A stretch of DNA of 64,000 nucleotides, from assembly GCA_963777315.1 (NCBI GenBank), contig CAVZQC010000004.1:672001-736000 (forward strand), read 5' to 3'. How positions within the stretch are numbered: position 1 is the first letter of the stretch; each line of letters starts with the position of its first letter. This DNA is from Vulcanimicrobiota bacterium (GTDB lineage: Bacteria; Vulcanimicrobiota; Vulcanimicrobiia; Vulcanimicrobiales; Vulcanimicrobiaceae). The position numbers are program-made. Shown piece by piece: positions 38,601-47,600 of the stretch.

Positions 38601-41600
38601 CGAGTCGAAGAACGCGCGACCATGCCGGACCGCCGATTCGGACTTTCCACGCGCGCCATTCACGCCGGCACGCCGCCGGATCCCGTTACGGGCTCGCGCG
38701 CCATGCCCATCCATCAAACCGCGGCCTTCGTGTTCGGTTCCACCGAGCAGGCGGCCGAACTCTTTGCTCTACGCAGTTACGGACATATTTACAGCCGGAT
38801 CAGCAATCCCACCGTGGCGGCGTTCGAAGAACGCATGGCCAGTCTGGAAGAGGGCCTGGGTGCGATCGCGTTTTCCAGCGGTTTGGCCGCGCAGCTCGCC
38901 GTGGTGCTCACGTTAGCCCAAGCCGGCGATCATATCGTCAGCTCGCAAAGCGTATACGGCGGCACGGTAACGCAGTTCAGCGTGACGCTGCGCCGCATGG
39001 GCATCGACACGGCCTTTGCCGGCGCGCGCGACTACGATGCAATCCGCGCGGCCATTGCGCCCAATACGAAACTGCTGTTTGCCGAAACGATCGGCAACCC
39101 GTCGGGCGAAATCGCCGACGTGCGAGCGCTCGCGCAGATCGCGCACGAGGCCGGCATTCCGCTTATCGTCGACAACACGTTCGCCTCGCCTGCGCTCTAT
39201 AGGCCGATAACGCACGGAGCGGACGTCGTCGTCCATTCGGCGACCAAATTCATTTGCGGACACGGCACCGTCATCGGCGGCGTGGCCATCGAGTCGGGAA
39301 AATTCGACTGGGGCAGCGGCAAGTTTCCATTGCTCTCTGAGCCCAGTCCCGGATACCACGACAAAATCTTCGTTGAAACGTTCGGCGAGTACGCCTTTCT
39401 CATGCGCGCGCGCGCAGAAGTGCTGCGCGACGTCGGCTCCCAACTGTCGCCCATGGATGCGTGGCTCTTGCTGCTCGGACTTGAAACCTTGCCGCTGCGC
39501 ATGAAGGCGCACGTCGAGAACGCGCGCCGGGTCGCGCAATTTTTGCAGGATCGCGCGGAAGTGGAATGGGTCAAGGCGCCGCAGATGGGATCGATCTTCA
39601 CGTTCGGCATTCGGGGTGGGCGCGAGGCGGGGCGGCGCTTCATCGACGCGCTCGAGTTATGGAGCCATCTGGCCAACGTAGGCGATGCAAAGAGCCTGGT
39701 AATACACCCTGCATCGACGACGCATTCACAGCTCGGCGACGAAGAACTGCGCAAAGCCGGCGTCGCTCCCGAAGCGGTACGTTTGTCGGTCGGACTGGAA
39801 GACGTCGACGATTTGCTGTGGGATCTCGATAACGCGCTGCGTGCGGCTGCACGTCAGTCCGAGCCGCGAACGGTTGTGAGGCAGCGGCAAACGGTATGAT
39901 CCTCGACACGATCGCAGCGCGGCGCGATCTCCTGGCCGCGAGCAAGACCGTCGCTATGGTCGGCGCGTCGGCGAATCCGCTGCGTCCCAGCTACACCGTC
40001 TTCAGTTACCTGCGCACCCAAACGCCGCTTTCGGTAACGCCGATCAACCCCACCATCGATCAGATCGACGGTATCAAAGCATATCCGTCGCTCCACGCGT
40101 ATGCTGCCGAATGCGGCGCTCCGGACGTCGTCGACGTTTTTCGCAAACCCAGCGAGGTGCTCGCAGTCGCCCGAGAGGCGGTCGACGCCGGCGCCAAGGC
40201 GATCTGGTTTCAATACGGCGTGGTCAATCAAGAGGCGATCGAACTGGCCGACGGCGCGGGACTCGCCATCGTCGTCGACCGGTGCATCAAGGTCGAATGG
40301 GCGCGTCAGAGCGGCGGTCTTTCGACCGGCGGCCTCAACAGTGGAATCATTACGAGCCGCCGGCGCGCGTGAACGACTCCGGCTATCTGCGCGAAGCGGC
40401 AGCGTTGGATCGGGAGATACTGCGCTGCATCCAGCGGCGCACCGTTCCGGATTTTGACGACCTCGCGCTGCGCGTCTTCGCTCATCAGCTGCGGTACAAC
40501 GTTCCGTACGCGCGGTACTGCGCTGCGCTGGGCGTAACGCTGGAATCGATGCCGGCCGGCTGGGAAGCGATTCCTCCGGCTCCAGCGGACGCGTATAAAG
40601 AGCAGGCGTTATGCACGTTCGATGCGGCGCGCGCCGAGCTGATTTTTCAGACCAGCGGCACGACGGGCGGCACGGGCGGCATGCATTACATGGAGAACGC
40701 CGCACTCTACGACGCGGCGCTGCTGGCCGGATTCGCCGACGCGATGCTGGCAGACCGGGCGGAGCCGCTTACCTATCTGCTGCTGCTTGCAAGTCCGCAG
40801 GAGCGGCCGCGTTCGAGCCTAGGCTATATGATGGCGCGCGTTGCGGACCGGTACGGGGATGGCGGCGAGGGATGGTACGTGCGCGGCGACGTGCTGGACG
40901 TCGATCACTTCATCGCCGATGCGCAGCGCGCGGCAACGTCGGCTGCCGGCGTATGCATCGCGGGTACGGCGTTCGCGTTCGTGCAGCTGCTGGACGCTCT
41001 AGCCGAGCGCGACATTCGCCTGCCGCTGCCCGCGCAATCGCGCATCATGGAGACGGGCGGATTCAAAGGACGCACTCGGGTGGTCGAGCGGGACGAGCTG
41101 TACGCGAATCTGTGCGCCGCGTTCGCTTTGCCTGCCGAACGGATCGTCGCAGAGTACGGCATGACGGAACTGACCAGCCAGTATTACGATCGCATTTCGG
41201 CCACCGGGCGAATCAAAAAAGCGCCGCCGTGGCTGCGCGCGCGTGTGGTCGACGCGTCGGGTGCGACGGTGCCGCCCGGCACGGCCGGCACGCTCGTGCA
41301 TGTCGATCTCGCCAACCGCTCCTCGTGCGTAGCGGTGCAGACGCAGGACGTCGGCGTTGCGGCAGGCGGCGGTTTCGTGCTGATCGGACGCGAACGCAGC
41401 GCGCAGCTGCGCGGGTGTTCGCTCGACGCAGAGCAATTGCGCGCCCTCGAGCGCGCGTGACGCATCTGGCGCGCGTTCCGGTGCGCACAATCATTCGGGC
41501 GATTGCAGCCGCAGCCGAACGTTGGAGCGACGCGGATTTTCCCGCACGCGTTCGAATTCTCGATCGCATTTGCGAGCGAACCGGCTATTCGATTCCGGTC

Positions 41601-44600: not shown

Positions 44601-47600
44601 AACGGCAAACCCCGTGCGCCACGACGAAACGGGCGCATTCACCAGCAGCGTCGACGACGGCTGTTTTGCGCTGCTCGATTACGGCGACGGACTAGTCGCG
44701 CGCCTTGCCGTCGACGCAACCTTAGCGGTGGATTCGTTCACCTTGGCGGCACATGGCGAAAACCGTACCGCGGTTGCGAGCGGCACGGACCCGCACGATA
44801 CGCGACTGTTCACCGTCGACGGCGAAGAAACCGCCGAACTGGAGTGCAAGCCGTCGCCGTATCGTCAGCTGCAGGCCATCGATCCGCACGTGCCCCTCAT
44901 CGTGGAGTTGCTCGACGAGTTCGTCAAGCAAATCGAAAGCGGCAGCAGCGCGGTGCCTACGTTCGAGCAGGCAGTTGCAACGCAGCGCGTGCTCGAGTCG
45001 ATCGGGTACGGCGTTTAGCCGCGTAACGTCAATGCGATTGCGCGTACGAAACCGCTGCGCCCGCGTCGAGCCGCCCGCAGCCTTGCTCGGAATCGCTGAT
45101 GTCGGCGGCGCTTTGGCAGAGCGCTTTGGCGACCTGCGCCGGCGTGTAGCTCGGCTTGACTGCCAGAATCAACGCTGCGGCACCCGCAACGTGGGGCGTG
45201 GCTTGCGACGTGCCGGCGATGTCGATGCGGCAGTCGGGCGTAGAGGAACTGGAATCGTAATCCGGAGTGCAGCTGCCGGGCTCGATCGCGGTACTGGAGT
45301 AGATGTGTTCGATCCAGTGCAGTTCGTCAAGGTCGTTGCTGCCGTCCGGGTCGCCGCCGGGCGCAACCAAGAAATCGCCGTTTCCGCCGTTCGGCAAATA
45401 ATTCGAATAACTGGCGACTTGCTCGGTCACGAAGTTGGAAACGCTGTCGTTGATGGCTGAAGCGCCTACCGCAATCACGCCGGGATCGGCTGCCGGGCAA
45501 TCCAGCTGCGCAAGACCCATACCCGTGTTCTCATCGCCGTTTCCGGCTGCCGCAACCACCACTACGTTGTGCGCGATCGCGTTCTCTACGGCGATGTACT
45601 CGGGATCGGCTGTCGAGCACGGCGGCGACCCGCCCAAGCTCAAGCTGATCACTTTCGCGCCGTTCGCGACCGCATCGTCGATAGCCGACGCTTCGTCGGC
45701 CGAGTCCGAGAAGCACTGATCCGGAGGATTTTTCAGGTCGCATCCCCCCGCAGGATCGGCCGGAAAAATCCGGTACGCCATGAGCTTTGCATCAAAGCTC
45801 GCCGCAGCGAATCCAAGCCCGTTGTCCGTATCGCCGGCCGCAATGCCCGCCACGTTGGTGCCATGGCCGTCCGTATCCGTGACATACTGACCGGACGTCT
45901 GCGCCGAGTCGGACGGGTAGGTGACGAAGCAACGCGTGCGCACGATCGATCCGCCGCTCAGTTCGGGATGCGTGACGTCTACGCCGGTGTCGACGATCGC
46001 GATGGGTGCAGCAGAACCCACGACCGGCGCCGATGAAGCAACTTCATTCCACGCCGCTTGCGCATTGATGACGTGCATGTCCCACTGCCCCGGCGTCGTT
46101 GCGGTTTCAAAGTATGGCGCCGGCGCACCGAAACCGCCGTAGTACGGATCGTTCGAAACGATCGTCATGCGCTGCCGATACGTCACCCGCCCGACGTTCT
46201 GTACGCCCGGCAACGCCTTTATTGCCGCGATGGCTTGCGCGGTCCGCTGCGGATCGACGCGCAGAATGCGACCGCGCACGTGCAGCGCATCGAAATCCAG
46301 GTCGGTAACGTGAGAAACGCGCAGTGAAGCGGCAAGCGAATCGATGCGGCCGGCGGATGCGTCGTCCTTGAACGAAACGGCAATCGCTCCGGGAACGTAG
46401 CGCACGTCTCGCGTTGCCGCTACGGGCACGCGCCGGCGTACCTGCATGCCGTACGCGACGCTCGAAGGCAACGACCCGCTTTGAGGGCACGTCACGCCCG
46501 ATTCAGGAACCGGGGACGAAGTCGAGGACGGAGTCACTCCGCCGTTGCCGCCGCTTCCGCCACCGCAGCCGGCCAGCAGCAATGCGGTGATAAGCGCCGC
46601 TGCGGCATTCCGGGAACCCGATCGCATTCTCAACACTCCCTGACAAAACGTAAGAGCCGATCATACTATCGGCCCCTACGATTGGCGCCCTTAACGCCCC
46701 CTATTGCGTGAGTGCTTTGGCCACGGCGGCACCCGCGTCCACGCGCCCGCACCCCTGTCTCGTATCGCCGATGTCGTGCGCGGTGGAGCAGAGATCGGAA
46801 GCAATGCGAGCGGGCGTAAGCGAGGGACGCAGGCCAAGCATCAGCGAGACGACGCCGGCGACGTGCGGGGTGGCCTGCGAGGTCCCGGAAAAGCCGCCGC
46901 GGCAGTCGCCGCCTTCTCCGGCGTAGTCCGTACGGCAGTACGCCGATGCACCCGCCATCTGGCTGGACGTGATGTTTTCAACGAAATGCAGATCGTCGCT
47001 GTCATTGCCGGAGTTTGCCGTGCCGCCCGGCGCGACGAGGTACGCTCCGCCGCTGCCGGGTCCCGCAGAAGACGTCCAGTTCGAATATCCCGCTACGGCG
47101 TCGGCCTGCGAAGAACCGGACGGGCCGTCTGCGCCGACGGCGATGACGCCCGGATATGCCGCAGGACAGTCGAGATAGTTCTGACCGACGCCGACCCCGT
47201 TGACCTGCTTGCCGTTGCCGGCAGCCGCGACTACCGCCACCCCGCGAGCGATGGCGGCTTCAACCGCGTTCTCCTCAACGCTGTCGCTGCATTCCGAGAG
47301 CGGACCGCCGGATCCTAAACTCAAGTTGATCACCTTGGCGCCGTGAGCTACCGCATCGTTGATCGCGCTGGCCTCGTCGACGTCCGTGGTGGAACACTGC
47401 GCGCTTTTCGAATTCTCACAGCCGCCGCTGGGCGTACTGGGAAAAATGCGGTACGCCAGCAGCGGCGCATCGAACGCCACGCCGGCAAAACCGAACGAAT
47501 TGTTCGTATCGGCATCGGTTATGCCGGCAACGTTGGTTCCGTGCCCGTCGGTGTCGACGGCATACGGGCCGGAAGATTGCGCGGCGCTGCTCGGATACGT

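Follow-up and report, generated by a model that had tools for sequence, protein, structure and literature searches.

Two enzyme systems and two other groups of proteins provide the closest comparisons for the locus analyzed here. In the luminous LuxC-LuxE complex of Photobacterium phosphoreum (PDB 7XC6), K238, R355 and C364 are functional residues of LuxE (PMC9157457). The LuxE- and LuxC-type proteins of our locus are homologous to this pair over their full length and keep the Lys/Arg pair used in adenylation and the two Cys residues, the acyl-carrying one of LuxE and the catalytic one of the reductase. In contrast, they scored far below the equivalog cut-offs for bioluminescence proteins (24.8 of 750 bits with NF052251 and 51 of 550 with NF052244), the C-terminal roof of the cleft is missing, and the pair is coupled to an aminotransferase. 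In the tambjamine routes (TabE/TabA and TamA/TamH), a thioester is likewise converted to an aldehyde that is then transaminated, and TabE groups with LuxC in a published network (10.1101/2025.08.11.669332). However, those routes act on C12 acyl chains held on a carrier protein, within specialized metabolism, whereas the trio described below has a LuxE-type activator, no carrier protein and a single-copy, housekeeping-like spread. The aminotransferases GabT, PatA and ArgD share with ours the fold (TM about 0.9, 33 to 36% identity) and the PLP lysine and aspartate but differ in motifs.

The second enzyme system belongs to queuosine biosynthesis, in which QueC converts 7-carboxy-7-deazaguanine (CDG) into preQ0 and QueF converts preQ0 into preQ1. 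The start and end points proposed for our locus are the same, and FolE, QueD, QueE, Tgt, QueA and QueG flank the step in both cases. The enzymes, however, show no homology, and the chemistry would differ: QueC and QueF proceed through an amide and a nitrile, with two reductions via preQ0, whereas a thioester, an aldehyde and a single reduction, without preQ0, are proposed here, the nitrogen coming from an amino donor via PLP. The only paper we found that mentions 7-formyl-7-deazaguanine (PMC13740343) describes it solely as a by-product of mutant QueF.

The locus lies in a 64-kb stretch of a Vulcanimicrobiota genome (the window) and comprises six co-oriented genes (Table 1), which are real and belong to the families assigned to them in the earlier note (Cys_Met_Meta_PP, CoA_binding_2, LuxE, LuxC, Aminotran_3 and GFO_IDH_MocA). 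With a GTG start at position 43978 for the GFO gene, all five junctions are 4-nt overlaps; the 8-nt gap formerly described would require a start at 43990, which is a GCA codon. Neither luxA, luxB nor luxD is among the six genes. Promoter and terminator predictions were no more numerous than in shuffled background, and an Rfam search of 29 loci plus the window returned tRNAs only and no preQ1 riboswitch.

Table 1. Genes of the LuxE-LuxC-aminotransferase locus (positions in the window)
Gene product	Position	Strand	Family evidence and proposed role
metY-like O-acetylhomoserine aminocarboxypropyltransferase, 425 aa	38622..39899	+	TIGR01326, 556 bits (cut-off 495), Cys_Met_Meta_PP; outside conserved core
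Small CoA_binding_2 protein, 158 aa	39896..40372	+	PF13380, E 4.7e-34; outside core
LuxE-type adenylating acyl-protein synthetase, 363 aa	40369..41460	+	PF04443; core, proposed CDG-activating enzyme
LuxC-type thioester reductase, 408 aa	41457..42683	+	PF05893; core, proposed release of 7-formyl-7-deazaguanine
Class-III PLP aminotransferase, distinct subfamily, 433 aa	42680..43981	+	PF00202; core, proposed preQ1-forming step
GFO/IDH/MocA oxidoreductase, 346 aa	43978..45018	+	PF01408; family-level neighbor, dispensable to the core

The LuxE-type protein matched 7XC6_E at the profile level (E 1.8e-34) and has the P-loop, the Lys/Arg adenylation pair and the C-terminal acyl-carrying Cys of the PF04443 class. 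S96 (in the P-loop), K233, R341 and C350 were invariant in all 66 sequences compared, the last three aligning with K238, R355 and C364 of luminous LuxE. Where the latter has VWFKYVM, the trio's protein has an invariant SSL-x-x-M. A fold search with the LuxE model gave PaaK-type ligases as the nearest matches, at a TM of about 0.65, which is too remote for a substrate to be named from the fold. The LuxC-type protein, with an ALDH-type fold and a catalytic Cys, scored 126 bits against PF05893 (cut-off 21) and matched 7XC6_A (E 8.4e-31); its C238 was invariant in 55 of 55 sequences. The alignment stops at residue 444 of the 477 of 7XC6_A (about 455 in the numbering of PMC9157457), and the protein ends 2 to 4 residues further on. 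The protein therefore lacks the segment P460-P488, which in luminous LuxC closes over the long hydrophobic cleft for the fatty acyl chain.

The third protein is a class-III enzyme in fold and cofactor site (355 bits with PF00202), in which K284, D255, R227, Y154, W305 and H314, as well as T317 of the cofactor site, were invariant in 101 of 101 sequences. It failed to reach the cut-off in any of the 25 NCBIfam models listed (284 of 410 bits for argD, 303 of 507 for gabT and 282 of 612 for patA). GABA and putrescine aminotransferases were its closest structural matches, with a TM of 0.92 to GabT, and racemases of the same fold showed 29 to 32% identity. Transaminase activity is suggested by the coupling to an aldehyde-forming pair. 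Compared with GabT (3OKS), four motifs are changed: HGRT to HGLS, QGEGG to QGRAG, DEVQTG to DEIYTG and VRFLPP to LSITPP. The changed residues include what we take to be the substrate-binding Arg and the Glu switch of ArgD, GabT and PatA. With Leu157 in place of the HGRT Arg of GABA transaminase, a substrate carrying a distal carboxylate is less likely. Ornithine, GABA and putrescine were rejected as substrates, given that both cut-offs and motifs fail. The subfamily motifs were found in 103 of the best 150 representatives at 50% identity; the subfamily is, by sequence, widespread. Fusions of the aminotransferase to LuxE occurred in four protein clusters and to LuxC in one.

The conserved unit is formed by three genes, luxE, luxC and the class-III aminotransferase gene, the metY, CoA-binding and GFO genes being dispensable neighbors. 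Linkage of the aminotransferase gene, which the earlier note had not counted, proved strong: it follows luxC in 39 of 40 loci of the order and, among metagenome loci with sufficient flank, in 28 of 31. Where the aminotransferase gene stood alone (50 genomes), the LuxE orthologue was encoded elsewhere in the genome in 46 cases. The LuxE orthologue, whose prevalence had been given as 60%, was more frequent than that: all 151 genomes of the order carried it (148 of 148 when three unpublished genomes are excluded). By contrast, of the 40 order loci, 30 had metY near the trio and 34 the CoA-binding gene, and neither gene was present in any of six loci of the sister order. The GFO orthologue adjoined the trio in 35 of 37 loci of the same family; a different GFO gene was present in three loci of the other family, and the orthologue was not found in three of five module-bearing genomes tested (G036, G031 and G002). 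Even luxE was distant from luxC in all 19 genomes of the commonest genus covered by both surveys. The CoA-binding gene usually co-occurs with metY, and the two presumably constitute a widespread pair, although a search did not confirm widespread pairing. At one locus (L034) the CoA-binding gene was still next to metY, on the opposite strand.

The earlier interpretation is thus supported in part. Its carboxylate-to-amine chemistry stands: the acid-to-aldehyde-to-amine sequence predicted for the trio is well supported by the invariant catalytic residues, the linkage across phyla and the gene fusions. The six-gene unit, with its dispensable neighbors, does not, and neither does order specificity, since the trio was also present in the sister order (six of six loci) and in records of Verrucomicrobiota, Omnitrophota, Planctomycetia, Myxococcota, Elusimicrobia, Eisenbacteria and Gemmatimonadota. 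Nor does the trio explain LuxC-LuxE pairs in general: all 34 genomes from the rest of the phylum, outside the class, lacked the aminotransferase subfamily, although many carry other LuxC types. Plasmid searches yielded only distant LuxC matches (22 to 30% identity, 27 records) and GabT-like matches, and the ESM Atlas only family-level neighbors. Finally, the substrate, which had been considered impossible to name, is indicated by comparative genomics to be CDG.

Sixty module-positive and 20 module-negative genomes were compared for queuosine genes. QueC above the cut-off was found in none of the former and 13 of the latter, and strong QueF in none and 4, respectively; weak QueF matches (model positions 1 to 59) were not scored, and lay inside folE in both cases checked. 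The remaining genes were retained in the module-positive set: PTPS/QueD-like (58 of 60, versus 15 of 20), QueE-like (58 versus 11, none in the panel above the Bacillus-type cut-off) and QueA (59 versus 12). Both tgt and queG were found in five of five genomes tested, and the YhhQ transporter in none of five. A QueC-like gene below the cut-off was present in six module-positive genomes; five of these genes form a divergent group (41 to 89 bits) in Omnitrophota-like genomes, and the sixth (141 bits) lies amid phage-like genes. Nine of the 13 module-negative genomes with QueC had neither strong QueF nor the module; QueF gaps thus occur without the module too.

In an even draw of 151 Verrucomicrobiota genomes, six carried LuxE of this type. 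QueF was found in none of these six versus 124 of the other 145 (Fisher p 2e-5), and QueC in none versus 120 of 145 (p 5e-5), both p values being overstated by kinship. Among five drawn LuxE-positive Verrucomicrobiota, one (G310) had no aminotransferase of the subfamily and another only a partial match. In addition, queE lay directly upstream of the aminotransferase gene in 37 of 80 loci (tblastn) and queD directly downstream of luxC in 7 of 20, counts that come mostly from one phylum and so do not represent independent events. No que gene adjoined the trio in the window or in any of the 51 class loci examined.

The genome carrying the locus (assembly 89.9% complete; most compared genomes are likewise incomplete assemblies) encodes FolE fused to a PTPS domain, a queD-queE tandem, and tgt, queA and queG. 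FolE and QueD exceeded their cut-offs, while QueE is a full-length match to 4NJG under the NCBIfam cut-offs. QueC was not found, canonical QueC queries giving no tblastn match, and neither were QueF and YhhQ. By the criteria of PMC5699537 its Tgt is of the preQ1 type, retaining Asp156, Cys158 and Val233 of the preQ1-inserting Zymomonas enzyme, and GUN-anticodon tRNAs for Tyr, His, Asp and Asn are present.

From these sequence comparisons, it is very likely that the trio converts CDG via the 7-formyl aldehyde into preQ1, replacing QueC and QueF, and it probably serves the supply of this queuosine precursor in bacteria devoid of both textbook enzymes. LuxE would adenylate the carboxyl group of CDG, the QueE product, using ATP, and Cys350 would accept the acyl group as a thioester. 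Transfer to Cys238 of LuxC and reduction by NAD(P)H would free 7-formyl-7-deazaguanine, which the PLP aminotransferase would transaminate to preQ1, and Tgt, QueA and QueG would then convert preQ1 into queuosine in tRNA. The sequence data themselves establish the genes, their families and catalytic residues, the linkage and fusions, and the patterns of presence and absence. The adenylation, thioester relay, reduction and transamination steps are modeled on the established chemistry of the families; we infer that CDG is the substrate, that an aldehyde is the intermediate, that an amino donor supplies the nitrogen and that cells of the module-bearing bacteria contain queuosine.

The production of a fatty or alkyl amine, as by TabE/TabA and TamA/TamH, with preQ1 obtained by salvage or another route, was considered because the only solved sequence relatives, LuxE and LuxC, are fatty-acid enzymes, and because Streptomyces dodecylamine is made by a LuxC-related reductase and an omega-transaminase (10.1101/2025.08.11.669332). 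In the sister order, genes for an MFS transporter and for an FlK-type thioesterase are found close to the trio, which points the same way. This reading would, however, leave unexplained the mutual exclusion with QueC and QueF, the linkage to queD and queE, and the retention of both genes without queC. The neighborhood has no recurrent acyl carrier or fatty-acid gene, LuxC lacks the roof of the long cleft, and a separate cluster in the same genome, with an acyl-ACP-reductase-like protein and an aminotransferase, fits a fatty amine better. Salvage is opposed by the absence of YhhQ from the five genomes tested and the persistence of queD and queE. We regard a fatty-amine role as very unlikely.

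Just as improbable is another action on deazaguanine, be it a different product for DNA modification or export, conversion of CDG already in tRNA, or dependence on a further protein, for example the divergent QueC-like one. A phage transglycosylase does insert CDG into DNA at low efficiency (PMC10516641), the divergent QueC-like gene accompanies the trio in the five Omnitrophota-like genomes, and one locus (L265) has an MFS gene between luxE and luxC; but QueA requires the preQ1 amine, tgt and queG were present in all five genomes tested, Tgt has the canonical preQ1 pocket, and 54 of 60 genomes have no QueC-like gene. Least probable is a role in amino acid or polyamine synthesis, such as the conversion of alpha-aminoadipate to lysine or of glutamate to ornithine. 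The genome lacks lysA despite having the diaminopimelate genes, its argB is degenerate, and it carries an unassigned isopropylmalate/homocitrate-synthase-like gene as well as leuCD/hacAB-like genes that diverge from the operon. Lysine synthesis via aminoadipate, suggested by the missing lysA and these divergent genes, was rejected because both G001 and G014 carry an intact lysA together with the trio; moreover, leuCD was near the trio in only 23 of 40 order loci and none of six in the sister order, and the aminotransferase lacks the HGRT Arg.

Conversion of CDG to preQ1 by the trio would constitute a previously undescribed pathway that bypasses the nitrile intermediate; a literature search covering few subscription papers found no description of such a route. 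We consider it likely that preQ1 has a second, unrelated route of de novo synthesis, through adenylate, protein thioester, aldehyde and amine, which is swapped in for QueC and QueF throughout a class of soil bacteria and in lineages of at least six other phyla. One non-luminous LuxC-LuxE subtype would thereby have a core function in modifying tRNA, and nature would possess a cascade, free of CoA and carrier protein, that turns a heteroaromatic acid into an aminomethyl compound's CH2NH2 group. Such a three-enzyme acid-to-amine cascade with a heteroaromatic substrate is of biocatalytic interest. For bacteria that have tgt but lack QueC or QueF, salvage of the precursor has been assumed (PMC5699537). 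If the trio makes preQ1, a function would be assigned to this LuxC-LuxE subtype and to a widespread aminotransferase subfamily, many soil and aquatic lineages would be producers of queuosine rather than scavengers, and pathway reconstructions would change.

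Our own gene and profile checks agreed with the earlier note on both the coordinates and the family names of the six plus-strand genes (38622..45018), namely metY, a CoA_binding_2 gene, luxE, luxC, a class-III aminotransferase gene and a GFO/IDH/MocA oxidoreductase gene (GFO). The 8-nt gap reported at one junction was not found, since all five junctions are 4-nt overlaps. In this genome luxE, luxC, the CoA-binding gene and GFO are single copy, and the aminotransferase has four paralogues (31 to 38% identity). Next to the operon, leuC/hacA-like and leuD/hacB-like sequences are fused in one 631-aa frame; because two separate genes occupy this region in two related loci (L053 and L040), and the normal leuC end sits in a different frame in the window, the fusion is a frameshift, possibly caused by an assembly error.

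The LuxE orthologue was present in all 151 genomes of the order (148 of 148 leaving out three unpublished ones). Among 40 loci of the order, picked across genera, luxC and the aminotransferase gene accompanied it in 39, GFO in 38, the CoA-binding gene in 34 and metY in 30; the unrelated cinA was found in 28, so that part of this conservation is ordinary synteny. In the sister order, LuxC was present in 7/7 genomes (one of them unpublished), and luxE-luxC-aminotransferase occurred in 6/6 loci with other surroundings, where metY, the CoA-binding gene and GFO were all missing. A search of G036 (one contig), G031 and G002 turned up no GFO orthologue. The proposal of an order-specific, six-gene unit therefore does not hold, and the conserved core is the trio luxE, luxC and aminotransferase. 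The commonest genus, which supplied 50 of the 150 sampled, had luxE distant from luxC in 19/19 genomes present in both the LuxE and LuxC listings, and luxC stayed with the aminotransferase gene in the five examined. Genes of 1.3 to 4 kb lie between luxE and luxC in five loci (L042, L044, L051, L061 and L069); the inserts of L044, on the opposite strand, and L069 have a surface or secreted-protein look.

A profile search placed the aminotransferase in a distinct subfamily, with its motifs in 103 of the best 150 representatives, and revealed fusions to LuxE in four clusters and to LuxC in one. The subfamily was absent from the 34 control genomes of the phylum outside the class (best E value 3e-113 vs 1e-166 or lower for orthologues). 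A scan of species genomes confirmed at least 592 matches, of which 80 loci were kept; by record titles these were mostly Verrucomicrobiota, with Planctomycetia, Omnitrophota, Gemmatimonadota, Myxococcota, Elusimicrobia and Eisenbacteria also represented. In 13 of the 80, luxE followed the aminotransferase gene, and in 11 luxC did too, in the order aminotransferase-luxE-luxC. Of the other 67, 50 were taken on, and 46 (45/49 leaving out one unpublished genome) had a LuxE orthologue elsewhere in the genome, with luxC within 1.5 kb of it in 23/30. In six loci from other classes of the phylum (L132 to L137), LuxC is of a different type; its open frames span about 850 to 900 aa, probably through fusion to another domain. 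L130 and L131 have LuxE-LuxC pairs amid sugar and ACP genes. A luxE-luxC pair is also known from flagellar glycosylation islands, a setting other than that of the trio (PMC7874193).

By family, the three proteins are a LuxE, a LuxC and a class-III aminotransferase. However, the trio's LuxE and LuxC fall outside the luminous Lux system, and its aminotransferase outside ArgD, GabT and PatA. Luminous LuxC has a segment roofing a long hydrophobic cleft, whereas the LuxC of this genome ends before it. In the aminotransferase, the GabT HGRT Arg, QGEGG Glu and DEVQTG Gln, residues with functional roles in GabT, are replaced by Leu, Arg and Tyr, respectively. The catalytic residues of all three families are kept: the LuxC Cys in 55/55 sequences, the aminotransferase PLP lysine in 101/101, and LuxE K233, R341 and C350 in 66/66, the Lys, Arg and Cys being assigned adenylation and acyl-carriage roles in passages of PMC9157457. 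The three-step carboxylate-to-amine chemistry put forward in the earlier note is thus retained as a prediction from family chemistry, with a precedent for acid to aldehyde to amine in tambjamine synthesis, as parts of 10.1101/2025.08.11.669332 describe.

In Verrucomicrobiota, queD lay directly after luxC in 7 of 20 wide loci (the one tested scored over the TIGR03367 cut-off), and a QueE-type radical SAM gene directly preceded the aminotransferase gene in 37/80 loci, a linkage drawn mostly from one phylum; no que gene stood beside the trio in 51 loci of the class. The QueE product, 7-carboxy-7-deazaguanine (CDG), is an acid, and preQ1, the next committed precursor, is the corresponding aminomethyl compound. 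We propose that the trio would convert CDG via 7-formyl-7-deazaguanine into preQ1, replacing QueC and QueF.

FolE, QueD, QueE, tgt, queA and queG are all present in this genome (see the table), as are tRNAs for Tyr, His, Asp and Asn, while QueC, QueF and YhhQ were not found in it (2.83 Mb, 89.9% complete). The presence of the former set without QueC and QueF leaves a pathway hole shaped like the chemistry of the trio. Tgt keeps Asp156, Cys158 and Val233, residues of the preQ1 pocket type described in passages of PMC5699537. Two genes come after queD-queE, one futalosine-hydrolase-like and the other probably of the menaquinone pathway.

Features of the window, of this genome (G000; contigs have C numbers) and of loci in this and other genomes (L numbers)
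Feature	Position	Strand	Remark
luxE	window 40369..41460	+	trio
luxC	window 41457..42683	+	trio
Aminotransferase gene	window 42680..43981	+	trio
leuC/leuD-like fused frame	window 36764-38659	-	631 aa
Pair of subtilase (S8) genes in tandem (51% identity); another protease-like gene, with lipoprotein-type start	window 45029-48359 and 31980-34031	-	flank the operon
Six tRNA genes	window 3547-13615		Rfam match
FolE fused to a second PTPS domain	L296:2332-3342, contig C3		sole FolE found in genome
queD-queE	C1:252790-253727		tandem
Futalosine-hydrolase-like and probable menaquinone-pathway genes	L294:3823-5203, contig C1		after queD-queE
tgt	contig C2		
queA, queG	contig C4		
Second reductase and aminotransferase cluster	L139:3207-6949, contig C6		PigE-N-terminal/acyl-ACP-reductase-like 677 aa, cyclase-fold protein, putrescine-aminotransferase-like gene
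Isopropylmalate/homocitrate-synthase-like genes	L144:6084-7481, L148:5866-7281, L149:6344-7738		below every cut-off shown
Divergent QueC-like genes	L299:4873-5511, L300:5622-6281, L301:210-890, L302:3052-3720, L304:5957-6589		

The hypothesis was set down first and then tested on an author-chosen panel of 80 genomes, 60 of them module-positive (a LuxE orthologue, plus the aminotransferase where examined; G062 by LuxE alone) and 20 module-negative. QueC scored over the cut-off in 0/60 positives vs 13/20 negatives, and QueF (E < 1e-20) in 0/60 vs 4/20. Other steps of the pathway were found in nearly all positives: PTPS/QueD in 58/60 (15/20 in negatives), QueA in 59/60 (12/20) and QueE-like proteins in 58/60 (11/20), none of the latter above the Bacillus-type cut-off. 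Since the panel had been chosen by the author, an even draw of 151 Verrucomicrobiota was added (150 plus the centre genome, a known positive beforehand). Six carried a trio-type LuxE, with up to 13 candidates per genome scored; QueF was present in none of these vs 124 of the 145 others, and QueC in none vs 120 of 145. Among the five drawn LuxE-positives, the aminotransferase was full in three, a partial match in one and lacking in one. All these counts are inflated by kinship.

A sub-cut-off QueC-like gene was found in 6/60 module-positives, and five trio-bearing genomes share a divergent QueC-like family (24 to 29% identity to canonical QueC, 42 to 52% mutual). Nine of the 13 QueC-bearing negatives had neither QueF nor the trio, and QueA was over the cut-off in seven of these nine, which may hold a QueF replacement of a further kind. 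They belong to other classes of the phylum (G151, G156, G159, G161, G166, G172, G177, G191 and G198), with no strong QueF. Rfam detected no preQ1 riboswitch in 29 loci or in the window.

Other amine and amino acid genes were also noted. The second reductase and aminotransferase cluster is a candidate fatty-amine route. The lysine genes were looked at in five genomes and in loci L142 and L143. Three of the genomes (G000, G011 and G036), two of them single-contig, have diaminopimelate genes without a lysA-family gene, probably reflecting lysine auxotrophy or a decarboxylase of another kind; lysA is intact in G001 and G014. No leuA-type match stronger than the isopropylmalate/homocitrate-synthase-like genes was found in the genomes of L144, L148 and L149.

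In the literature searched, no description of a route from CDG through an aldehyde to preQ1 was found. In passages of PMC13740343 the only mention of 7-formyl-7-deazaguanine is as a by-product formed by QueF mutants. The variants tabulated in PMC6593275 include none that has QueD and QueE but lacks QueC and QueF, and portions of PMC10516641 describe other fates of CDG in phages. Judged by comparative genomics, the trio is probably the missing CDG-to-preQ1 route, a variant of the known pathway. This window adds two points: the trio is in use throughout a class, and metY, the CoA-binding gene and GFO are passengers.
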